DNA of 61,955 nucleotides, filler included, from Collodictyon triciliatum (taxonomy: Eukaryota), in the NCBI GenBank assembly GCA_043381765.1. It is 4 parts of 4 records of this genome, joined end to end, with 100 filler letters (N's around TTAATTAATTAA, not from the genome) between each part and the next. Parts side by side here need not be neighbours in the genome. Positions count along the whole stretch, not along the records: positions 16,437 to 38,547 come from JBHJMP010000430.1; 3 more parts are not named here. One strand, written 5' to 3'. The position numbers and the translations under genes are program-made. Below the pieces are notes generated by a model. It was not told where the DNA came from and made no database searches. It saw only the letters and a program-made list of their open reading frames with translations. This document shows, in pieces, positions 12,301 to 60,955 of the stretch (its first letter is position 1; each line of letters begins with the position of its first letter).

Positions 12301-15256
12301 CAGCTCGAAAATAACATCCACATCCTCCAGGTTTTTCTTTTGCCTCGAAATCATCGCACTCACAGTTATTTACGATGGAATCATGCCCTTGATTAATTAT
12401 TTAGCGTTCTGAAGTGTTTTGGTTCACTTGCAGAGTGAAATGGCCTATCACGTTTCTCCCGAAAAATACAACTCGATTCTCAAATCACACGAAGAATTGA
12501 TTCAGGCCTACAGGGAGCTAAAGGAAGACAAGGTTTCATATAAATTGGGCTATTTCTCAAGATTATGAAATCTTTCTACTTTAATTTCGCAGAGCAATTT
12601 GTTTTATATTCGAAACGTTAGACAACTAAGACAATAGGTTTCATTTTTTTTTTTATTTTAGGCTGCACTTCAAAATGAATATGATTCGCAGTTTGCTTTA
12701 AATGCGAGCCTGAGGCAGTCACTTTCCAGGGTTGAGGAAGACTTTAAAAAATCAAACGATGAATTAGCTCGCTACAGAAGGTTCTTTTCTTTTCTTTTCT
12801 TTTCTTTTCTTTTCTTTTCTTTTCTTTTCTTTTCTTTTCTTTTCTTTTCTTTTCTTTTCTTTTCTTTTCTTTCTTACTTTNNNNNNNNNNNNNNNNNNNN
12901 NNNNNNNNNNNNNNNNNNNNNNNNNNNNNNNNNNNNNNNNNNNNNNNNNNNNNNNNNNNNNNNNNNNNNNNNNNNNNNNNTCTCTTCTCTTCTCTTCTCT
13001 TCTCTTCTCTTCTCTTCTCTTCTCTTCTCTTCTCTTCTCTTCTCTTCTCTTCTCTTCTCTTCTCTTCTCTTCTCTTTTTATATAATCATTTCTTGTATTA
13101 ACCGTGAAGTGCATGGAAAATATGTCGTAATTTCGATTGTGCTTACAACATTTAAGTATCAAATGTGAATTTGAAGTTTTTCTTTCACATTGTGTGTCAT
13201 TCAAAAAAGGGAGATATATAGAGAGAGAAAATGAAAGTGGAGTCCAGCACTTAATTCAATTCATGAATGTTTGAATCGACAGAATAGCGACTGAGAAAGA
13301 TAGGGAAGTTTCAAACACAAATGACTATTTGAAACAAAAGGCTCATCAGGTATGCCCTACATCTATTGGGTGTCGTATTGAGCAATTCTCCGTTCTGGGA
13401 TTATACAAAAAAAATCCGCAAGAATGGCATGATTTTCATGGAATTTAGTCCGTTCAATAAATAGTTTCGTATAACGTCGTTGGTTTGTGATAGATGGTCG
13501 TCATTGAGGATGCAAGGAAGCAGCAGACAGTCGAAATAGCCTCTCTTCATGCCCAGATAGACAGAATCACCATCGACAAGCAATCACTCGAGGCTCAAAT
13601 ATCGATGTTCCAATCCGAATTGGATGAGAGGAAAAACACCATATCGCGACTCGAATCGACACTTCTGGAGGCAGAAAGACAGAGACAGGTATTTTATTTT
13701 ATTTTATTTTATTTTATTTTATTTTATTTTATTTTATTTTATTTTATTTTATTTTATTTTATTTTATTTTATTTTATTTTATTTTATTTTATNNNNNNNN
13801 NNNNNNNNNNNNNNNNNNNNNNNNNNNNNNNNNNNNNNNNNNNNNNNNNNNNNNNNNNNNNNNNNNNNNNNNNNNNNNNNNNNNNNNNNNNNTTTTATTT
13901 TATTTTATTTTATTTTATTTTATTTTATTTTATTTTATTTTATTTTATTTTATTTTATTTTATTTTATTTTATTTTATTTTATTTTATTTTATTTTATTT
14001 TATTTTATTTTATACGATACATGATATTTTAAAAACTTCACATGCATTGCCCTTTGCTGATGTCAATGAAATCACTCAGTTGGAATCAGACAAGACTCAG
14101 AAGCTGCAGAGTGAGATAAACCGAAGAGAACGCGACCTCGCCAATTGCCAGGAACTTGTGTCTGCCTTGACTGATGTATTCTGTTTATTCTGAAATAAAT
14201 GAAATTCAAGCAAATGTAGAACACATCGATGAACATATTTTTTTTCGTGATTCATGCTTCTACTTTTCTTTTTTCTTTTTTTTCTTATTTTTTACGACTT
14301 GGTGTTCCACGGTAATTGAATCTTTCTTTAAAAATAAATAAATTGATTAATTGATTAAATTAAAAGGCACACCAAAAGTCAACCGAGCGAGCCAAAGTGC
14401 TTCAATACGAAGTGGATTCCTACCGCAGACAAACAGACACCCGAAGCAGTCTCGACGACCGCCATTCCAGCTCGCGCCAGACAGATTCCAGAGAGACCGA
14501 TGATGTAATGGGGTGACCACCCTTGCCTATAATTTGCTTGCATATTCGGGCGCTTTGTTTCTGCTGCTGCTGCTGCTTTCTCTTCTGGCACAAATCTCGC
14601 TTGTTCGCTCATTCGTTTGTTCTCTTAGATTGCCCGAGCGCGTCTGGAGCTGTTCAATATAAAAGCGTCCGCAGAAGCAGAGCTGCAGTGAGTCTTGCTG
14701 ATTCCGTTCGGCATACACCAAACAAACAAACAAACAAACAAACAAACAAACAAACAAACAAACAAACAAACAAACAAACAAACAAACAAACAAACAAACA
14801 AACAAACAAACAAACAAACAAACAAACATACACTTGGCATTTACCTGTTTGCTGTCTTTGCCAACACACCACAAATCCCTTACACAAATCGCATCAAACC
14901 CACACAGAGCTCGGCAAAGAGCAGGCGCAAGCGGAGCCTATCACATCCACCGTGATGAGCGTGATTTGCGGCAATACGTCCAATCCTTGACCCACGCCAT
15001 CGACCGCACGCAAAGAGCCGAAACGCAGCCCCAAGCAAAGGGCGAATCACGCCCGAGTCCCACCACGTATGTGCCCATCGCCCAGACATCTGATGCAGAA
15101 TCCCCCTCCAATCAACCCATCAATCACGCAAGCAAACGAGCCTAACACGCTTTCCATCACGGCAGCGACAAACGGCAGCAGACGCCGACATCGTCCCAGG
15201 CTCGTCCGTCTCGTCTCGGGCAGCAGCTGACCCGCACATTCCAAACTGTACTCTAG
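6077..15256 (+). CDS. Large multi-exon coiled-coil protein, CCDC171-like
   Basis: More than 25 exons join in frame from ATG 6077 to TAG 15254-15256; E/Q/K/R heptad-rich. Segment ELISQKRFL...IQDLSFAV...RSLR|VVAIAVLLCHRLRK resembles the CCDC171 FRxAVIAVLAANRL region as recalled. Confidence 0.7.
6160..6392. repeat. (TAT)n/(TATTAC)n intronic microsatellite
   Basis: Direct reading; source of the poly-N/poly-L ORFs. Confidence 0.95.
12782..13075. repeat. (TTTTC)n and (TCTCT)n intronic microsatellites spanning an N gap
   Basis: Direct reading. Confidence 0.95.
13690..14012. repeat. (ATTTT)n intronic microsatellite spanning an N gap
   Basis: Direct reading; begins immediately after the GT donor. 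Confidence 0.95.
14719..14827. repeat. (CAAA)n intronic microsatellite
   Basis: Direct reading. Confidence 0.95.
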
Positions 15257-17602: not shown

Positions 17603-24162
<6,560 letters not shown>

Positions 24163-27982: not shown

Positions 27983-28934
27983 GCTTCGCTGCTGGGACCA
28001 TAAATCGCATTGGTTTTCGATTCTCAGCCATCCAGAAAATCCAGATAAAGAAAAGGAAAAAGGAAAGGATTTTTGAAGGATATTATCTCTACTGAAAGAG
28101 AAGAAAATGTTCAAGCACTAACCGAATTCATATTGATAAGATGACTAGCATGGGCAGAAAGGTAAATAATATGAACCAGTACAAGATTCAGTGAATCTAA
28201 CTTATACCAATAACAAGGCACATTGGTGTGATAGGCTCACAAGTCAATACAGCAATATGTTCTCCGAGCGAGAGCTTTTAGAGTACTAGGATAGAGCTTG
28301 TTTGATTATATGGAGACCCAGGCTCATACCCAATAGCTTTAATATGTACATGACCGTGCATTTAAAATTTTATATCATCTGTCACCACCCACCTCACGCA
28401 AAATGAAAATAAGAACGACAAATATTACCTTATCATGCGCACCAGAGCCTAGAAAGAAAAATATTGAGCAGGATAATTCGCATCATTATCTGCATTATGC
28501 AGGGCTTTATTGGTGCGGTTGATACTAGGAATCCCATATGGCAAGCCCTATCGTATTTTATGTGCGTTTGGTATTAAGTCCTTAAATCTTATATTCAGGT
28601 CTTTCATGGGCACAATGATACCAAGTGTAAAGCTCGGTAGCGTAGTTCTATTGAATCGACTTTTTTTTTTTTTTTTTTTAATAATTCTTTCAGTTTTTGC
28701 AAGATGACGGAAGAAATATTCATTTGCCATGACTGTAAAAAATAGAATAAAAAATCGGGGAATACCAGAAGAGAAGTGATGGCAAAATATGAGCTCAGAT
28801 ACAAGAGTTAAGCCAAAGAAAACATTACGCTGGTATGTCTTTTCTTCTCCTTTATTTTAGGAGAAGAAATGGTATGGTATCACTATAAATGTGCGATGAA
28901 AAAACAACTTAAATACAAAATAGGTAGCACACAC

Positions 28935-29942
28935 CGCGCTATGATTTTCTACAACCTGGAGAAAGCATACGACTATGTGAACCACGAAGCACTGGAAACC
29001 ATCCTACACAAAAGGGGCTTCTGCACCGGATTCACCGGTCTTATCAAGAAACTGCACGACAATGCAACAGCGAGGGTACTCACGGCACACGGACTCACGG
29101 ATGCAATCCAAAGACAGAGCAGGGTGTATCAAGGCTGCCCACTTGCACCACTGCTCTTCAACTTTGTTGCTGACTGTATTGCAAACCACTTCCGAAACGA
29201 AAACAAGGTGCGCAGCCAACTGCTACTTCAATATGCAGACGACACAGCATTCATCTTACGGTCTCCCGAAGGCGCCAAACTCGCCAACAAATGCATGCAA
29301 GAATACACACGAGCTATCGGTGGAAGATTCAACTACGACAAGACAGATGGAATTCATTTTGGGTTTCAGGATGGACTTACATTTCCAGGAAACATTGTGT
29401 GGAAGCCACCGTCACATCCACTCAAGTATCTTGGCATCATCTTCGGTCCACAATCGGATAGCAAATGGACAAGCCTAGTTGAGGACATCAAGCCGAAAAT
29501 ATCAGGGTGGAGCAACTTTCATCTCTCGGACGTGGGGAAGTAAGGTTGTGGAACCAAGTGATGCTGTCGACCCTTATCTACAACATAAAAGGCACTTTAT
29601 TAAACTTCAAGAGGCTGGAGGGACTGAAAGCCTCGAGGAATAAAGTCTCTTGAACAGCCTGTTGAAACACACCCACTTTCTTCGCTACTCTGACCCCAAA
29701 CGAAGAGAGATGTGGGAATGTGTCGTAAGATATCTCACACAGCATATCCAATCCGTGCTACCTACACAACCAATCAACCAGTTGGGTCGCCCACCTGACC
29801 AACTCACTATCACTGATTTCTTTCCGGTGGTAACTTCTTAGTAGCGTCATCTACTCGCGTTCGCTCTCAACCATACCCACCTACCCTGCCCATGGTATGG
29901 CTTAGCCCTGTTGCATTTTGAATTAAATAAAGAGAAAAAAAA
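28935..29942 (+). mobile_element. 5'-truncated, decayed non-LTR retrotransposon (L1/Tx1-like RT and 3' tail)
   Basis: NLEKAYDYVNH, QGCPLAPLLF, QYADD, LKYLGI, W..L...I...W...HLS..GK. A frameshift at ~29541 continues as RLWNQVMLSTLIY. Ends TTTTGAATTAAATAAAGAG-A8. Confidence 0.88.
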
Positions 29943-30070
29943 TTAATGGCCTCTTATTGTGATATATCCCTATGCTTACATCTGCCCCTACCATGCGCAC
30001 TCCACCCACCTCTTGCGGGGAGAAATTACCATATGATTAACCTTTGTAAAAAAATATAAAACCATTTCTT

Positions 30071-30108
30071 CACTTGAATCGAATGAAGGAAAAACAAAAA
30101 AAAAAAAA
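30071..30108 (+). mobile_element. Diverged copy of the same 3'-tail motif with a longer A tail; TSD not found
   Basis: CACTTGAATCGAATGAAGGAAAAAC-A13. Confidence 0.55.
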
Positions 30109-30244
30109 TCACACGATGGCAAAGTCTCATCTAAGGTTGTACTCTTCATATGCAGGGTTTTTTTTTAAAAAAATAAATATACAACGAGAGATAATTGTGC
30201 TACCAGTTTTTAATTGATAGAGAAATTACTCAATCCATACTTTA

Positions 30245-33200
30245 TTAAATCGTGTATTCTGATGAAGAATGGAAAGTGGAAACATTCTGCATTTCTTGAG
30301 TGTCCATTTGCTTTCTATTATTAACCATCCTTAGGATGGCCTGCGTAAGTATATTATCAGTAGCACAACTCCAAAAGAATGTTAAAATGAGGCTAAATTT
30401 TCTCAATATGATCTTAATCACAACAGGACCCGCTTTCGAAAGAAAGATGGTACATATTGCTGTATTCAAAAACACTACCAGGCCCATTAAAAGAAACTTC
30501 GTATTTTGATTGATATCTCCGTAGCAAAATAGTAGACTCAACATCAAAGTAAAATAGAGGACCATAAGCGATTGTATTTGCGATTTTTTTAAAACATTAG
30601 ACATGAAAGGCTTAAAATATATTGTCGAGGCTATCATAAAGAATAACAACCATAATCCAAAATATACTTGCAATGCAGTAGAGAAGAATATACTGAGTAC
30701 GACAATGATCAACTTTTGTAGCATCATGATAACTTCCCAGAAGTGACATTTTTCTGTATAGCCGTCAACAAGGAATCTCATAAGAGAATAGGCGTTAGAA
30801 CTATGATCCCTGAGAGAACTTGAATTTTCAACCATCTTGTAAAGTAATATGAGAGGACCTCCCAAACAATATATAGAAAAAAATGCAAGTGTAATATTTT
30901 TATAAATCAGATAATTTTCGTCATCGCACATTATTGACATGTCTGCCTTTAGGTAGCTCGTATTTCCGAGTGTTTGACACGGGAAAATTTCAGCGACACT
31001 GGACGTAATTGATGGATGTACAAAAAAAAGCATAACCATAGCGGAGTATCGAAATTCATACCAAAAAAATGTATACGTAAGTTCTTCTTTTGATAGCTCT
31101 TTTTTAAATATAAGCCAAGTTTTCTTAATAATGATCATTAAAACAATCAAGAGCATCAAAATAATTGGAATGAACATCGTAAGGAAAACCTTTTCATATA
31201 TTGTAAATTTGAATTGACATTCCAAAGGATAATTATCCATCGATATTGAAAAAGAAAAGATAGCTGGTATTTTCATAACAGAAATGATTTCAGAACTCCA
31301 GTTAACATCGAAATTTGCCAAATATGTAAGAACTTGAAAGTGTGTAGAAAGTGATTTCAGAATTTGTATATTTCCAGTCTTTGGCTGCTTTGATTGCTCA
31401 ATCATAAAAGAAACAAACGAAATAGGAAGTATAATACTAATTATGATAAGGAATAAGTTGACAGGTTGCGAAGCACATTGTAAACATAATAGCCCAATTT
31501 TTCCGTATCCGCTCTCACATACACTGCATAAAGCACCGTTATAACCTATAGCACATGTGTTATTACCTCCGATGCACGCTTCTGAATTCCTGCATTTATA
31601 AGCAATATAATTGTTGCTATTACTTGGAGCTCTCCAATATCCTGGAGCAACTTCTAACACACTGCTTCCATCGCATATGAAACCAATTGGACATGCCTTA
31701 CATTCATAACTATGGGTATCTATGTAAGTTGATGATAAACAGGTGCATAAATCAATGGAAATAGTTCCTGTTGAATTCGTGTAAGAATTAGGCGGGCAAT
31801 CTTTGCATAAAGTTTGTCCATATTTATCATTGTAAGTATTTGGAATGCATTTATAGCAATGTCCTTCATTCTCATACCACCCAGGTTTGCATTTGCATTC
31901 TCCATATTGAAAAGAAAATCCAGGCTTGCAAATGCAATCATCTGCATTTATCGAGCCATTATACATGGTTGTAAATTTATTAGGACAATTTGTGCATAAA
32001 TTAATGCCATTATTTGATTTGTAAGAACCTATCTTACAAGAGACACATCTATTTCCATCCTCGAATTTACCAGGAGGGCAAGTGCAAATGTCTCCATGAC
32101 TTATGTAAGTTTGGATACAAAGGCATTCAGATATATTTGTGGACCCGATTTTTAATGTTGTTGATCTTGTGGGACATAAATTGCATAATTCACTTCCACT
32201 TGAACTATAACTCCCATTAGGACACTCAAGACAAAAGGATAATCCATAAGATCCAATTTTGTTGTTGTATGTACCAGAAGGGCATGACAAACACGATGGG
32301 TTTCCTTTTTTATCGTTGTAAGTGCCTTTTGGACATTCAATACAAGAAGAATTACCATATGTACCTGAAATAGAGTTAAATGTTCCTATCGGACATGGAA
32401 GACATGAATTAGGGTCTTTGATAGCATCTTCCTTCTGATAATATCCAGGAGAGCATAGAATACACGAAGAGCTCCTTTCTGAACTATAGGCGCCATCAAT
32501 ACAAGACAAACAAGAGATAGATCCAAAAGAACCAAATTTATCACTGAAAGTACCAGAAGGGCACGATTCACACGTTGCTTTACCTTTTTTATCGTTGTAA
32601 GTGCCTTTTGGACATACAATACAAGAAGAGTTACCATATGTACCTGAAATAGAGTTAAATGTTCCTATCGGACATGGAAGACATGAATTAGGGTCTTTGA
32701 TAGCATCTTCCTCCTGATAATATCCAGGGGAGCATAGAATACACGAAGAGCTCTTTTCTGAACTAAAGGTACCATTATTGCATATCTTACATGATATTTT
32801 GCTGTAAGATCCAATAATGTTGTTAAAGGTACCGACCGGGCACGAAATACACGACTTATTTTCGTGATCTGTGTATGAACCCAGAGGACAATATATGCAA
32901 TCTTTTTTATTTTTTGCTCCATAGTTGGGATTATATGTGCCTTTATCACAATTAAAACAATTTTTTTGTCCTCTTTCTTCGGCGTATGTACCAGGAAAGC
33001 ACATAGAGCATATTACTGACCCATTTTTAGATGAAAAACTCCCTACATCACAAGGTAAACAGTCGTCAGCACTTCGTGAAGCAGAATTGATATTATATTT
33101 CCCTGGTGGACATTCATTGCAAAAACTCGATCCCGTATAATTTGAATATGTTCCTGGAGAGCAAGGATAACAGTAGGTTTTTCCTTTATCTGCGTTAAAA

Positions 33201-36200
33201 AATCCCTTTTCACACGAGATACATACAGATTGACCAGGTGAGGGATTATAAGTTCCAGTATCGCAAGCTTTACAGTTATCAACACTAGTTGATCCAATTA
33301 CGGGATTGTATGTTCCAGTTGGGCACAAATCGCAGGAATATTTTCCTTTGTAGGGATTGTACTCACCAAGGTTGCACAAAACACAATGATTCTGCCCAGT
33401 AGACGGATTGAATGTTCCGGGTGGACATTCTATACATGAAGAATTTCCTAAGTAGGGGTTATAGGATCCTTTCTCACATAATTTACAGTCATCAATACTT
33501 ATCGATCCGACATTAGGATTATATGTTCCCATTGAACAAGGATTGCAATACTTTTGTCCAGTATAAGGATTGTATGTTCCGACATTGCATGGCGTACAGT
33601 CTGTTAGATTTTTTGATCCTGTTCTCTGATTGTAAGTGCCCACAGGACATTTTTGGCACAAAGGTTGTCCAGCATTAGGATTATAGGTGCCTGGTTCACA
33701 AATGGTACAAGAATGGCCACCTGTTGAAGGATTATAAAATCCTAAATCGCATGGAATGCAAGACGATTGAGCAGTGTAGGGGTTATAAGTTCCAGGTTTG
33801 CATGGAATGCAATCGTTGGAACTCCTCGATCCATTTATTGGGTTATATGTTCCAATCGAACATGAAAGGCAATTTATTTGTCCTTGTGATGGGTTATACA
33901 TCCCTTGATTGCATGGTATGCACGAAGATTGACCAATATTTGGATTAATGGTCCCTTCTGGGCATGCATTACATGAAGATTGCCCGGGTGATGGATTATA
34001 TGTTCCAGGTAAACATGGGATGCATGAAATCGAGGAACTTGACCCAATTGATGGATTATATGTACCGCTCGCACATGGAGTACATGATGCTTGTCCAATC
34101 GATGGATTATATGTTCCTGATATACATGGGATACATGAAACAGAGGAAATTGACCCAATTGATGGATTATATGTGCCGCTCGCACATGGAGTACATGATG
34201 CTTGTCCAATAGATGGATTGTATGTTCCTGATATACATGGGATACATGAACTTGATGAATTTGAACCTATTGATGGATTATAAGTACCGCTAGCACAAGG
34301 ATAGCATGATGACTGACCTATTGAAGGATTATAATTCCCAGCGGTGCACGGAAAGCATGAACTTAAACTTATTGAGCCAGAGGAAGGATTATATGTACCT
34401 ATTGCACATGGAATGCATGAAGACTGACCTATTGAAGGATTATAATTCCCAGCGGTACATGGAAAGCATGAACTTAAACTCGTCGAACCATTGTAAGGAT
34501 TATAGGTACCAGCTGCACATAAACTGCAATAACTCTGACCTGCTAAAGGATTGTATGTACCAGATGGACATGAAAGGCATGATATGGGACTTATTGAACC
34601 AGTTGATGGATTATAAGTGCCAACAGAACATGATGTGCATGATGATTGTCCAATTAATGGATTGTAAGTCCCAGCGGTACATGGGATACACGAACTTAAA
34701 CTCGTTGAGCCTGTCGATGGATTAAATGTACCAGCATTACATAAAAGACATGATTTCTGACCATTAAAAGGGTTAAAAGATCCAGATGTGCAAGAAAGAC
34801 ACGAGCTTGCACTAACAGAAGCAAAAGAGGGATTAAAGGTTCCAGTAGTACAATTCGTGCAAATTGACTGCCCTATATTAGGATTATAGGTTCCAGGTGG
34901 ACATAAAAAACATGAAGTTACATTTGTTGATCCACTTGAAGGATTATATGTGCCAACAGAACATGGAACACAAGATGATTGCCCAATTAATGCATTGTAA
35001 GTACCAGCTGGACATGTCAAACATGATTTTGCACTAACTGACCCTATGTGCGGATTATATGTTCCAAAAGCGCAAGGTATACATGATGAACGCCCAGGAA
35101 AGTGATTATAAGATCCAGATTCACATGAAAAACATGAATTTATTGCGCTTGATCCCATTAATGGGTTGTAAGAACCAGCCGCACATAAAGTGCATGATGA
35201 TTGTCCCATAAAAGGATTATAGCTTCCAGTTGGACATAAAATGCATGAGCTAGAATTTGTTGCTCCTATAAACGCATTATACGTACCAGCAGAACATGGA
35301 ACACAAGATTGTTGTCCAGTAAGAGGGTTATAAGTTCCAACTGCACACAAAATGCAAGAACTTGAGCTTGTTGAACCATGTGAAGGGTTATATGTGCCGA
35401 CGTTACAGCCGGAACAACTTTTTTGACCAGTGAAAGGGTTGAAGGTGCCTGGGGGGCAAGAATCGCATGAAGATCGCCCCTGGGACGGATTAAACATTCC
35501 TGCTGGGCATAATAAACACATTATCTGCCCACTTAATGGATTATAAGTTCCTTCTGGACATGAGGAACAATAAAGACTACCATGGGAACTGTAACTTCCA
35601 CTAGGACATACGGAGCAAGACTTTGAATTTGAGTCATAAAAGTATCCTCCTGAACAAACTCCCCAAATTCTCACGGTATTATCGTCGCTGCCCGTGATTA
35701 ACTTTGAACCATCATGGGAAAATACAACACTATTTAGATCATCCAAGTGACCAATCAAAGTTTGAATTTGACCTCCACTAGGAAGATTCCAAATTTTTAC
35801 TGTGTTATCATCACTCCCGGATATCATTTTTGTGTTGTCTGGTGATATTGATAGACCTTTCACATCACTAGAATGGCCCACAAGGGTTGCGATTAAATTA
35901 GCGGTGAACGTGTCCCAAATTTTTATTGTTTTATCATTACTACCTGATGCAATAATCAATCCATTAGGTGATATTGCAATGACATTGACATCATCTGTAT
36001 GACTTGTTAAGGTATTAACCAAAGATTTAGTTGATATTCTCCAAATTTTTATAGTAAAGTCATCACCTCCTGATATAACTAGTGATCCATCAGGCGAAAA
36101 AATTACACTTTTGACATCATCATTATGTCCACTAAATGTGTAAATTAAGGATCCGGTTGAGAGACTAAATATTTTAACAGTATTATCGTCGCTTCCTGAT

Positions 36201-36631
36201 GCGATTAGTGAATCATCTGTACTAATGGCTACAGAATTTACAGCCCGATTATGAAACTCTAGGGATCTAACTAATGAACCAGTAGATATGTTCCATATTT
36301 TTATAGTCATATCTTCACTCCCAGAGACAATTTTGGTTCTATCCGAAGTGACAACAACACTTCTTACCCAGTTGGAATGGGCATTCCAGGATAGAATCAA
36401 TGTTCCTTCATAAAAATCCCACACCTTAATGGTTTTATCACTACTTCCAGAGACTATTTTTGAACCATCATTCAAAATTGCAACGCTCCAAACAGATCCT
36501 GTATGTCCATAGAGAGTATTCATCAAATTCTCTTGACCATCCACTCCAATAATTTCTTTGAGAAATATCAGCCCTGATGACAAACGGTGAGGAAGGGTTA
36601 AATTTATAAATTTAATTGAATTTTTTTTCAT
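30245..36631 (-). CDS. Intronless 2128-aa membrane protein: 7 WD40 repeats, long Cys-rich (GCC2/GCC3, ephrin-receptor-like) repeat array, multi-pass TM C-terminus
   Basis: Uninterrupted ORF. Seven xH...SGSxDxT[IV]K[IV]W repeats; dozens of CxxCxxGTYNP units; VAPGYWR...C...GALCSVC..GY juxtamembrane motif; roughly 8-10 hydrophobic segments by eye. Confidence 0.92.
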   Translation of the reverse strand: MKKNSIKFINLTLPHRLSSGLIFLKEIIGVDGQENLMNTLYGHTGSVWSVAILNDGSKIVSGSSDKTIKVWDFYEGTLILSWNAHSNWVRSVVVTSDRTKIVSGSEDMTIKIWNISTGSLVRSLEFHNRAVNSVAISTDDSLIASGSDDNTVKIFSLSTGSLIYTFSGHNDDVKSVIFSPDGSLVISGGDDFTIKIWRISTKSLVNTLTSHTDDVNVIAISPNGLIIASGSNDKTIKIWDTFTANLIATLVGHSSDVKGLSISPDNTKMISGSDDNTVKIWNLPSGGQIQTLIGHLDDLNSVVFSHDGSKLITGSDDNTVRIWGVCSGGYFYDSNSKSCSVCPSGSYSSHGSLYCSSCPEGTYNPLSGQIMCLLCPAGMFNPSQGRSSCDSCPPGTFNPFTGQKSCSGCNVGTYNPSHGSTSSSSCILCAVGTYNPLTGQQSCVPCSAGTYNAFIGATNSSSCILCPTGSYNPFMGQSSCTLCAAGSYNPLMGSSAINSCFSCESGSYNHFPGRSSCIPCAFGTYNPHIGSVSAKSCLTCPAGTYNALIGQSSCVPCSVGTYNPSSGSTNVTSCFLCPPGTYNPNIGQSICTNCTTGTFNPSFASVSASSCLSCTSGSFNPFNGQKSCLLCNAGTFNPSTGSTSLSSCIPCTAGTYNPLIGQSSCTSCSVGTYNPSTGSISPISCLSCPSGTYNPLAGQSYCSLCAAGTYNPYNGSTSLSSCFPCTAGNYNPSIGQSSCIPCAIGTYNPSSGSISLSSCFPCTAGNYNPSIGQSSCYPCASGTYNPSIGSNSSSSCIPCISGTYNPSIGQASCTPCASGTYNPSIGSISSVSCIPCISGTYNPSIGQASCTPCASGTYNPSIGSSSSISCIPCLPGTYNPSPGQSSCNACPEGTINPNIGQSSCIPCNQGMYNPSQGQINCLSCSIGTYNPINGSRSSNDCIPCKPGTYNPYTAQSSCIPCDLGFYNPSTGGHSCTICEPGTYNPNAGQPLCQKCPVGTYNQRTGSKNLTDCTPCNVGTYNPYTGQKYCNPCSMGTYNPNVGSISIDDCKLCEKGSYNPYLGNSSCIECPPGTFNPSTGQNHCVLCNLGEYNPYKGKYSCDLCPTGTYNPVIGSTSVDNCKACDTGTYNPSPGQSVCISCEKGFFNADKGKTYCYPCSPGTYSNYTGSSFCNECPPGKYNINSASRSADDCLPCDVGSFSSKNGSVICSMCFPGTYAEERGQKNCFNCDKGTYNPNYGAKNKKDCIYCPLGSYTDHENKSCISCPVGTFNNIIGSYSKISCKICNNGTFSSEKSSSCILCSPGYYQEEDAIKDPNSCLPCPIGTFNSISGTYGNSSCIVCPKGTYNDKKGKATCESCPSGTFSDKFGSFGSISCLSCIDGAYSSERSSSCILCSPGYYQKEDAIKDPNSCLPCPIGTFNSISGTYGNSSCIECPKGTYNDKKGNPSCLSCPSGTYNNKIGSYGLSFCLECPNGSYSSSGSELCNLCPTRSTTLKIGSTNISECLCIQTYISHGDICTCPPGKFEDGNRCVSCKIGSYKSNNGINLCTNCPNKFTTMYNGSINADDCICKPGFSFQYGECKCKPGWYENEGHCYKCIPNTYNDKYGQTLCKDCPPNSYTNSTGTISIDLCTCLSSTYIDTHSYECKACPIGFICDGSSVLEVAPGYWRAPSNSNNYIAYKCRNSEACIGGNNTCAIGYNGALCSVCESGYGKIGLLCLQCASQPVNLFLIIISIILPISFVSFMIEQSKQPKTGNIQILKSLSTHFQVLTYLANFDVNWSSEIISVMKIPAIFSFSISMDNYPLECQFKFTIYEKVFLTMFIPIILMLLIVLMIIIKKTWLIFKKELSKEELTYTFFWYEFRYSAMVMLFFVHPSITSSVAEIFPCQTLGNTSYLKADMSIMCDDENYLIYKNITLAFFSIYCLGGPLILLYKMVENSSSLRDHSSNAYSLMRFLVDGYTEKCHFWEVIMMLQKLIIVVLSIFFSTALQVYFGLWLLFFMIASTIYFKPFMSNVLKKSQIQSLMVLYFTLMLSLLFCYGDINQNTKFLLMGLVVFLNTAICTIFLSKAGPVVIKIILRKFSLILTFFWSCATDNILTQAILRMVNNRKQMDTQEMQNVSTFHSSSEYTI

Positions 36632-38865: not shown

Positions 38866-39199
38866 GAGCATCAAGGGGCGATTGCAGGGGCGACATCGGG
38901 ATTCATGATTCTCTCCTTCTTTTTCTTCTTCCGACCAATGTTCAACACTCTGGAAGAGGAAAACAGGTTAGTTTCTATCTTTTTGTGGGGGTTCATGTCT
39001 TCCAGTATTTATCACAGGTTTCATATTATATTATGAAATTCGGAAAATGGGTAAAGAAGAAAAGAAAAGGTTGAATCGACCCTTTGAACATTTCTCTCTC
39101 CTCGCCAGACAAACGCGCGCGATGCTTTTGATGATGCCTGACGAAGTTGTTGCAAACACGCCCGAGATTGAAAAGTTTTTGATCAAGACAGATTTATAA
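38866..39199 (+). CDS. Last two exons of a membrane protein with a TmcB/TmcC (PAS-domain family)-like C-terminus
   Basis: GFMILSFFFFFRPMFNTLEEENR|QTRAMLLMMPDEVVANTPEIEKFL; TM followed by the E...TRxMLLMxP pattern recalled from that family. Confidence 0.6.
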
Positions 39200-41696: not shown

Positions 41697-41754
41697 AATA
41701 GCGCCTCGATATTTTTTTTCCTTTATTCGATTCAAAGTAATGGCGCCTCGATAT
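41697..41754 (-). mobile_element. Micro-element copy (insert 41713-41738) with 16-bp TSD, just downstream of the kinase stop codon
   Basis: Minus strand: ATATCGAGGCGCCATT [ACTTTGAATCGAATAAAGGAAAAAAA] ATATCGAGGCGCTATT (15/16 match). Confidence 0.85.
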
Positions 41755-44449: not shown

Positions 44450-44570
44450 AATACATAACACATAAAAAACACATAAAAAACACATAAAAAACACATAAAA
44501 AACACATAAAAAACACATAAAAAACACATAAAAAACACATAAAAAACACATAAAAACACATAAAAAAACA
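44450..44570. repeat. (AAAAAACACAT)n minisatellite in the divergent intergenic region
   Basis: Direct reading. Confidence 0.92.
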
Positions 44571-47600: not shown

Positions 47601-49210
47601 AATATTTGCAGTCTCAAAAGCGGTCCAACTCTACATTCGAATATAAACCAGTCACAAGTGATATGTTTGGTAAGACCTTTTACTTTTTCAATCTTTCGGT
47701 TTGCCAAATTGTCATCGTAAGACATATCATTATATGGGCTTCCTTCATGTCTCCTCTTCATCCCATCCCTATTTTGAGTGAAATCTGAAAGATAATCTAG
47801 ACTGTCATGCATGACTATTGCTCGCTAATGCTCTTATCTTGTAGGAGATAGTGCTGAGGATAAATCATCTATCATTGACGGCACATTCTTTTCGAATGGA
47901 ACATATGTATTCTGCATCGCCCCCACACTCAAATCCTTGCCCAATTCTTCAATAGTTCGTATCTATGACTCTATGAATGGGGCTCTTCTTGCAGACTATT
48001 ACCTGAGCGATTTTGATGCTGGTAAACTCCTATCTCCTTGAATTCATCACGCTCTGACTCAGGCTCAACCAACTGATCCCGGATTTCTTGCTCCAAAATC
48101 TAATTTGTAGATGTATATCGGTTATTCTACTATCCTCTACCTAACCATGTCCATCCTCTATGGGTTTTGGATTTTATTCGAAATGTGCTGCCTACTAATT
48201 TGTTTCATGTAGGAGTTTTTGCGTGGTATGACGCTGGACTAGATGCATCATACTTCTTTCACCCAGCAACAAGGTTGATCTCTTTTGTTGAACATTCTAC
48301 TGTTCGCTGGTCAAGGAGACGTTCCAAAGGATCACCAGAAGAATGTGTAGTGCTTCAGTCATACCTAGAGGCTTCGCAGCACTTCAATTCTGAAATACTA
48401 AAGTCCCCCGATAGACTTCCTAATCTTACGATAGCTACTTTCCTTCTTTCTCAATTGGAGCGGCTCTCATTTCAAAGCATGGGTTTGATGGAACGAGTTA
48501 ACCCTATTCTCAAAAAGCAGCTTGAAGCAGCAAACATGTTTTTTCCTTTTGTCTTGGAGTTATGCCCAAAAACATTTGAGTGCATTTATGACATCCTATC
48601 GCAGCTTCACAAGGCATTGAACACTGAAAAACGAGCTAGGTTTGTCAGAGTTGAATTCAATATGGACAGACATTGCAGAACGAAAAATATATTACGAAAA
48701 ATATCACGAAAATAAATATATAAATAAATATGATGTTGAGTCATCCATTTTCTATAACCCAATTGAACGACAGACTAAAGAAAACAATCAACATTAACAG
48801 CTTTGAAGTTGTATACTGCATGAAATCAATACTGGGGGTCTTAACGATGCAACTATCGAAATTATCGCCTTTTGAGCATCTTCCCCTAGACATTGCGCCA
48901 TTCTTCCAATCTACCTCTTTTGAAACTACCTCAGCTGACGCATCAGGTACTTTTTTTCTTCTTGAATTTCACAATGTCTGAATCCTTTTCTGTTCCAACG
49001 TTCGTCATATCTTGTTATATGGTACCGCTCAACCGCAAACATTGAATAATCATGAGCAAAAAGTAACTTCTTTGAATCGAATAAAGGAAAAAAATGAGCA
49101 AAAAGTAACTTGATTGAAAACATTACTTTCTCTAGGTTCTGCATTCTTGACATGGACCCCAGACCAAGTTGCCACATGGATTGGAGATACTCTGGGCTTT
49201 CCTCAATACA
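44613..49210 (+). CDS. 5' part of a giant HECTD4/MYCBP2-like protein; truncated at a gap
   Basis: In-frame exons from MGQVGS; ASDGTYIYY...ILKFGLGHG|GTTIG propeller motif recalled from HECTD4/MYCBP2; CPFC...CTDC Cys cluster; SAM-like start WTPDQVATWIGDTLGFPQY. Confidence 0.6.
49052..49111 (+). mobile_element. Micro-element copy (insert 49070-49093) with perfect 18-bp TSD, intronic
   Basis: ATGAGCAAAAAGTAACTT [CTTTGAATCGAATAAAGGAAAAAA] ATGAGCAAAAAGTAACTT. Confidence 0.9.
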
Positions 49211-60582: not shown

Positions 60583-60955
60583 CTTTTTATGGTTTTTTAT
60601 GGTTTTTATGGTTTTTTATGGATTTTTATGGTTTTTATGGCTTTTTATGGTTTTTAATGGTTTTTTATGGTTTTTTATGGTTTTTTATGGTTTTTTATGG
60701 TTTTTTATGGTTTTTTATGGTTTTTTATGGTTTTTTATGGTTTTTTTATGGTTTTTNNNNNNNNNNNNNNNNNNNNNNNNNNNNNNNNNNNNNNNNNNNN
60801 NNNNNNNNNNNNNNNNNNNNNNNNNNNNNNNNNNNNNNNNNNNNNNNNNNNNNNNNAACAAACAAACAAACAAACAAACAAACAAACAAACAAACAAACA
60901 AACAAACAAACAAACAAACAAACAAACAAACAAACAAACAAACAAACAAACAAAC
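60583..60955. repeat. (TTTTTTATGG)n and (AAAC)n satellites spanning a gap
   Basis: Direct reading. Confidence 0.93.

Follow-up and report, generated by a model that had tools for sequence, protein, structure and literature searches.

A dead L1-like LINE copy and four 25-nt retro-insertions with a probably related tail in a stretch of Collodictyon triciliatum DNA

In this study, we found that the window (the whole stretch of draft eukaryotic DNA that was analysed; 61,955 nt, 1,785 N included) holds four insertions of a 25-nt unit and a single LINE copy with a similar 3′ terminus. The explanation that we prefer, with a probability of about 60%, is that the L1-like LINE group including this dead copy yields tail-only insertions by target-primed reverse transcription, which would start at the end of a templated run of seven A's and stop after 18 nt. 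Very short 5′-truncated copies of L1-type elements are already known, and what is unusual here is the sharply defined 25-nt tail-only product. The coordinates of all features are collected in Table 1.

Table 1. Positions of the LINE copy, the 25-nt insertions and further features in the window
Feature	Position	Strand	Remarks or basis
Whole LINE copy	28929-29942	+	5′-truncated inside RT; one frameshift; at least 620 nt of ORF2 missing
ORF2 fragment, RT motif ~3 to thumb start	28929-29629	+	RVT_1; tblastn; family contigs
Internal deletion junction, at least about 620 nt of ORF2 missing	29630-29659	+	Protein homology; family contigs
ORF2 C-terminal end	29660-29841	+	ORF 29644-29841; P0163 homology
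Short 3′UTR, 74 nt	29842-29915	+	Between stop and tail
LINE terminus TTTTGAATTAAATAAAGAG-A8	29916-29942	+	Probable diverged version of the 25-nt unit
Exact copy 20244-20268 with TSDs	20228-20284	+	16-bp TSDs 20228-20243 and 20269-20284; 14/16 identical
Copy 22592-22616 (2 mismatches) with TSDs	22578-22630	+	14-bp TSDs; 12/14 identical
Exact copy 41713-41737 with TSDs	41697-41754	-	16-bp TSDs; 15/16 identical; one extra A 5′ of the unit
Exact copy 49070-49094 with TSDs	49053-49111	+	17-bp TSDs; 17/17 identical
Degenerate tail-like copy ACTTGAATCGAATGAAGGAAAAAC-A13	30072-30108	+	130 bp behind the LINE
Uninterrupted 2,128-aa ORF	30245-36631	-	N-terminal WD40 propeller; 33 Ephrin_rec_like cysteine-rich repeats
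A-rich tandem repeats, units e.g. ACACATAAAAA, CCATAAAAAA, AGGGAAAA	4400-5100, 23210-23340, 44460-44560, 60650-60745

Four insertions of a 25-nt unit

The unit CTTTGAATCGAATAAAGG-A7 (in full, CTTTGAATCGAATAAAGGAAAAAAA) is present in the window as three exact copies and one copy with two mismatches, a density of about one per 12-15 kb, and 0.00 copies were expected from 100 shuffles. Target site duplications (TSDs) adjoin the unit in all four cases, with 12-14 of 14 positions matched. Among 200,000 random 25-nt segments examined as a control, 2.6% had 12/14 matched, most of them within tandem repeats. In addition, the core is 92-100% identical among the copies versus 18-40% for the 60-nt flanks. 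Thus, the unit comprises exactly 25 nt, or 26 nt if the extra A at 41738 is included. All four TSD-flanked copies start with the same base, C, although one of them may include one more base, A. The A-run is A7 in all three exact copies, and in two of these it is followed by an A that possibly belongs to the duplication. The 25-mer is a real retro-insertion present in four copies, which show the features of target-primed reverse transcription that begins and ends at fixed positions. The primer strands at the four nick sites, derived from the flanks, end in CTCA, ATAT, AGAT, and AGCA and are not T-rich.

Two ordinary sources of short insertions were considered and rejected. The unit stops where the flanks turn unrelated and leaves no room for the promoter or body of a SINE. 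Meanwhile, random 5′ truncation would give variable end points, and all four copies share one start. A TSD scan of the window for other A-tailed short insertions gave the 25-nt insertions alone, besides tandem repeats and weak long-range pairs; the A-rich tandem repeats swamp naive TSD scans of this DNA.

The copies at 20244, 41713, and 49070 probably sit in introns. Splice-site-like sequences were seen about 60 nt downstream of the 20244 copy (TTTTAG|A), on the upstream side of the 41713 copy, directly behind a 404-aa ORF (GCG|GTGAGT), and downstream of the 49070 copy (CTCTAG|G). For annotation, it matters that the 25-nt inserts carry AATAAA and that their flanks look intronic in three of the four cases.

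The 20244 copy lies within an older, inverted, element-like sequence. The TSD on its downstream side, TTCGATTCAAA, is exactly reverse-complementary to 11 nt of the unit, and the reconstructed empty site on the minus strand reads TTTGAATCGAAGAT-A8. This site, a single case, may reflect a preference for insertion into earlier copies. In addition, the 10-mer TTGAATCGAC, in which the 9-nt core of the unit is followed by C and not by A, was found outside the insertions at 13271-13280, 28651-28660, and 39071-39080. The 9-nt core occurs nine times in all versus 0.96 expected. The 10-mer at 28651 adjoins a run of 19 T, and this run resembles the A-tail of an insertion on the minus strand, immediately 5′ of the LINE.

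The LINE copy and its relatives

The plus-strand ORF 28812-29543 matches Pfam RVT_1 (E = 1.9e-17) and contains QGCPLAPLLF, YADD, and KYLGI, which bears out the reverse transcriptase (RT) pseudogene reported in the first-pass annotation. Homology to LINE ORF2 proteins begins at about 28935-28941 (query residue 42-46 of this ORF). Searching 1.84 billion representative proteins with the window RT gave 6,997 matches with E ≤ 0.001. The closest relatives are fragments, namely P0157 (94% identity), P0010 (92%), and P0005 (89%; all three by tblastn), and P0001 (68%). The first three align at 89-94% identity up to 29540 and then continue in another frame to 29629 (tblastn), where protein homology stops at residue 78 of the 285-aa P0157. 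The ORF2 fragment has a 1-nt deletion at about 29537.

The same anatomy can be read from sequencing data. Contigs of four independent runs (X1, X2, X3, and X5), none of which contains more than 0.17 of the sampled words, were aligned to 28700-30150 at a likeness of at least 80%. The LINE family is abundant elsewhere, and 31-139 contigs were aligned per run. Their alignments start at 28929-28941, and the family sequence goes on in the 5′ direction as loose ends; thus, the window copy is 5′-truncated. Most family contigs carry an extra A behind 29537, and the window copy is therefore frameshifted at that point. The contigs diverge from the window behind 29598 and realign from about 29659. Furthermore, contig depth climbs toward the 3′ end of ORF2, as expected for 5′-truncated copies, and peaks over 29660-29841 with up to about 2,500 in X2 and X3.

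Behind the internal deletion, the ORF 29644-29841 is 86% identical to P0163, and P0164 and P0165 share the same ending. These three proteins, found with the sense ORF2 end as query, stop before the UTR. The stop codons TAG TAG are located at 29839-29844, and behind 29829/29834 the family contigs have loose ends similar to 29840-29862. All parts of the copy, from the RT through the ORF2 C-terminus, the stop, and the 74-nt UTR to the tail, are colinear on one strand. The full LINE end reads TTTTGAATTAAATAAAGAGAAAAAAAA. The first-pass annotation had placed this terminus at 29917-29942; its end is correct, and its start is 29916, one base off. The copy carries its A8 terminus, but no TSD was found around it over all plausible 5′ ends (best 8/14). 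The proposed comparison of duplications between long and 25-nt copies thus gave 14-17 bp at all four insertions and none at the LINE.

The sequence QLTITDFF (29800-29823), five residues before the ORF2 stop, is a PCNA-interaction-box-like motif, and P0163-P0165 have QLAITDFF. Among the full-length relatives at a greater distance, P0006-9, P0012, P0013, P0159, and P0166-8 were examined, and no such motif was found at their C-terminal ends.

The nearest full-length relatives, P0006-P0009, are 1,226-1,275 aa long and 34-41% identical to the window RT. With P0151 as query, a search for longer proteins found none that was both full-length and of the same lineage (>60% identity). An APE endonuclease had been named as a feature to look for: Exo_endo_phos (APE) together with RVT_1 is present in all six full-length relatives scanned (P0006-9, P0012, and P0013; 31-41% identity to the window RT), and four of the six additionally have zf-RVT, while the window copy, being 5′-truncated, is without the N-terminus. 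The best solved-structure match of the window RT is human LINE-1 ORF2p (E ~1e-12; PDB 8sxt, 8uw3, 9k6g, and 8c8j), and R2 proteins in the PDB match more weakly (E 1e-10 to 1e-6). In addition, P0006 matches human L1 ORF2p with E = 1.2e-75 over residues 52-862, spanning APE, tower, and RT. Thus, the best structure match and the APE domain of the full-length relatives indicate an L1-like, APE-type LINE, in agreement with the L1-like affiliation first suggested. On sequence evidence, 28929-29942 is classed as a dead copy of an A-tailed, L1-like, and probably APE-type non-LTR retrotransposon, where L1-like covers both L1 and Tx1. Insertion of the Tx1 type into a single target was rejected because the four target sites of the 25-nt insertions are mutually unrelated (flank identity 18-40%).

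No other RT or LINE DNA was found in the window. The remnant itself is an ordinary dead copy and thus cannot be the autonomous partner of the insertions that the first-pass annotation had seen in it. What stands of that proposal is the LINE group as the likely source, the LINE terminus being the sequence in the window most closely related to the 25-mer.

Several searches in other collections added little. The 22-nt tail pattern had two matches in genome contigs, both in prokaryote records and probably due to chance, and none in viral contigs. A 22-nt stretch of the high-copy ORF2 end (29778-29799) had no match in metagenome contigs. For related loci, a protein alignment gave 124 pattern matches in metagenome contigs and 54 in viral contigs, where the window RT gave 11 more, and none of these was confirmed. 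A 50-aa antisense ORF used as protein query found nothing.

The LINE terminus and the 25-nt unit

To compare the two tails, the edit distance between the 18-nt core of the unit and the bases before each A-run (at least six A's) was determined for 260 A-runs on both strands of the window. The distance was 0 at three sites, which are the 25-nt insertions, 4 at one site, which is the LINE tail, 5 at one site, and 6 at six sites; the remaining sites had distances of 7-13, with a mode of 9-10. The LINE tail is therefore the closest non-identical match to the core, and it differs by three substitutions and one indel. From this distribution, the chance of so good a match at one given A-run is about 1 in 250 or less.

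How much of this match is specific has to be considered. The AATAAA and the A-run are generic and could occur at any polyadenylated 3′ end, and the specific part consists of TTTGAAT, the spacing, and AATAAAG. The resemblance could be due to chance, the LINE ending in an ordinary AT-rich polyadenylation region and the insertions having an unrelated origin, for instance in a cellular RNA or a different LINE family. Four edits in 18 nt and the generic elements would fit such an origin, as would the fact that the exact 15-mer core with at most three mismatches is expected 5.5 times per window. Furthermore, no exact 25-mer copy is accompanied by 3′UTR homology, and no copy of intermediate length joining the LINE 3′UTR to the exact 25-mer was found in the window. 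However, none of the 256 remaining background A-run sites lies within four edits, the match is located precisely where the window's only LINE ends, and neither the seven-base TTTGAAT nor its spacing to AATAAAG is generic. We consider chance resemblance improbable.

The number of differences can also be set against the decay of the copy. At the adjacent ORF2 end, the window copy diverges by 9-14% from the family contigs (12/128, 14/114, and 19/133), so that two to three changes would be expected in the 18-nt core by decay, and four were observed. The four edits are compatible with descent from an identical tail and equally with a sister sub-lineage bearing a variant tail. The contigs give little cover at 29876-29973 (depth at most 10), a range that includes the tail. 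One X5 contig matches 29915-29947 alone and has other flanks, which is uninformative. The first-pass annotation had called the change of the central CG to TA compatible with CpG decay. This argument is weak because two independent transitions are needed and the observed/expected ratio of CpG, 0.87 in the window and 0.71 in the LINE, indicates hardly any depletion.

A different view of 29916-29942 would take it as a separate decayed 25-nt insertion located at, or replacing, the end of a 3′-truncated LINE copy, in which case it would say nothing about the LINE's own terminus. Such units are frequent in the window, and the 20244 copy inside older element-like sequence demonstrates that nesting occurs. 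However, there is no TSD around 29916-29942 and no second A-run marking a LINE end upstream, and a UTR of plausible length runs from the ORF2 stop straight into the tail. Thus, a separate insertion is highly improbable.

A small point in favor of a shared tail is the preceding base: the LINE (at 29915), the 41713 copy, and the tail-like copy at 30072 all have A before the unit. Judging from these comparisons, the LINE tail and the tail of the 25-nt insertions are probably homologous.

For the tail-like copy at 30072-30108, whose A-run is long and interrupted, no TSD was found (best 7/14), and the 130 nt before it have no likeness to the LINE 3′UTR beyond the tail itself. In each of the four runs, contigs at low depth (1-6) reach into 30023-30120, so this copy may mark the terminus of a different repeat with nothing but the tail in common.

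Possible origin of the insertions and comparison with known systems

In our preferred explanation, the LINE 3′ terminus would be a decayed or sub-lineage version of the 18-nt-plus-A7 sequence carried by the 25-nt insertions. The ORF2 protein would nick the target, and cDNA synthesis would begin where the A7 run has its fixed end. The enzyme would then copy no more than the last 18 nt and stop at one fixed base, and a second nick 14-17 bp away would create the duplication. Both enzyme and template would come from the LINE group and not from the copy in the window, and the fixed stop may mean that the RNA is a short protected fragment or that the enzyme is blocked. Several points speak against this explanation: the common start in all four copies, which is unlike random 5′ truncation, the four differences between the tails, the partly generic match, the absence of a linking copy of intermediate length from the window, and the lack of a TSD at the LINE. 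A sister lineage of this LINE may instead be the actual source.

The fixed ends could also reflect a more stringent system. Here, the ORF2 protein would recognise the 18-nt motif, and a discrete 25-nt RNA would be a self-standing minimal substrate mobilised in trans, that is, a non-autonomous micro-retroposon and not a truncated LINE copy. The identical 5′ base and the constant A7 look templated and position-specific, whereas in relaxed L1-type copies both the poly(A) tails and the truncation points vary. In addition, the primer ends are not T-rich, and initiation thus seems independent of poly(A) pairing. According to the available part of PMC4176376, there are established cases of LINEs with strict recognition of their own 3′ tail.

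However, the same part of that source places L1 among the relaxed type, and the RT of the window is L1-like (PMC4176376). The known stringent tails are stem-loops, whereas the 3′UTR and tail of the LINE (29842-29942) fold at -13.2 kcal/mol versus -13.65 ± 2.69 for shuffles (z = 0.17), and 104 of 200 shuffles fold at least as well. No stem-loop was found in the LINE tail by this folding, which is a weak test on one decayed copy, and structure lends no support to a specific recognition of the tail. Furthermore, 25 nt are too short for a promoter, so that the RNA would still derive from a longer transcript, and there are only four copies in the window. We regard the stringent system as possible but rather unlikely. 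It is unlikely, and slightly more so, that a freshwater protist has a stringent, position-specific L1-like LINE whose ORF2 protein grips the 18-nt terminal motif, with the motif and seven templated A's forming the complete substrate, for example the nuclease-protected RNA footprint of the protein. If the stringent reading is true, 25 nt would be, to our knowledge, the smallest retroposon unit known.

Human LINE-1 was compared as well, its ORF2p being the best solved-structure match of both the window RT and P0006. Nevertheless, the sequence similarity is distant. The poly(A) tails of human L1 are long and variable, and its nick site is TTTT/AA, unlike the four nick sites in the window, which are not T-rich.

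Among L1-type LINEs, Ylli of Yarrowia lipolytica has an APE-type ORF2, poly(A) tracts, and, as an example of 5′-truncated, dead-on-arrival copies, 104 fragments of 30 bp to 1 kb, and its TSDs are given as not identified in the available text (PMC5014426). As far as that text describes it, Ylli resembles the present case in its APE-type L1-like enzyme, its A-rich 3′ end, its copies consisting of the 3′ end only, and its very short fragments. However, the short copies in the window form one sharp 25-nt class with the same start, the same A7, and TSDs of 14-17 bp.

The zebrafish elements ZfL2-1 and ZfL2-2 of the L2 clade are stringent LINEs that strictly recognise the 3′ tail, and their tails are stem-loops bound by the ORF2 region between EN and RT, according to the part of the source available (PMC4176376). 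On that description, they share with the window a short 3′ tail common to a long autonomous element and short derivatives, and a seemingly position-specific initiation. The differences are that the window RT is L1-like, that no fold is supported in its tail, and that recognition is putative here.

The Platy-1 element of marmoset, about 100 bp long, is called the shortest known primate SINE in the available part of PMC4864456. As described there, it is likewise a very short retroposed unit dependent on a LINE. However, Platy-1 is four times longer and forms a repeat family of its own, whereas the 25-mer is no longer than the LINE terminus. A full-text literature search found no ultra-short tail-only insertions comparable to the 25-nt unit.

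If the link between the LINE group and the insertions is true, this genome supplies a minimal template of natural origin for target-primed reverse transcription. In that case, 18 specific bases and seven A's would suffice for copying and integration with normal target duplications. This would help to establish the requirements of an L1-like enzyme for starting and stopping.

Besides these elements, the window contains a 2,128-aa ORF (Table 1), whose C-terminal part appears hydrophobic by eye and is possibly multi-pass membrane.
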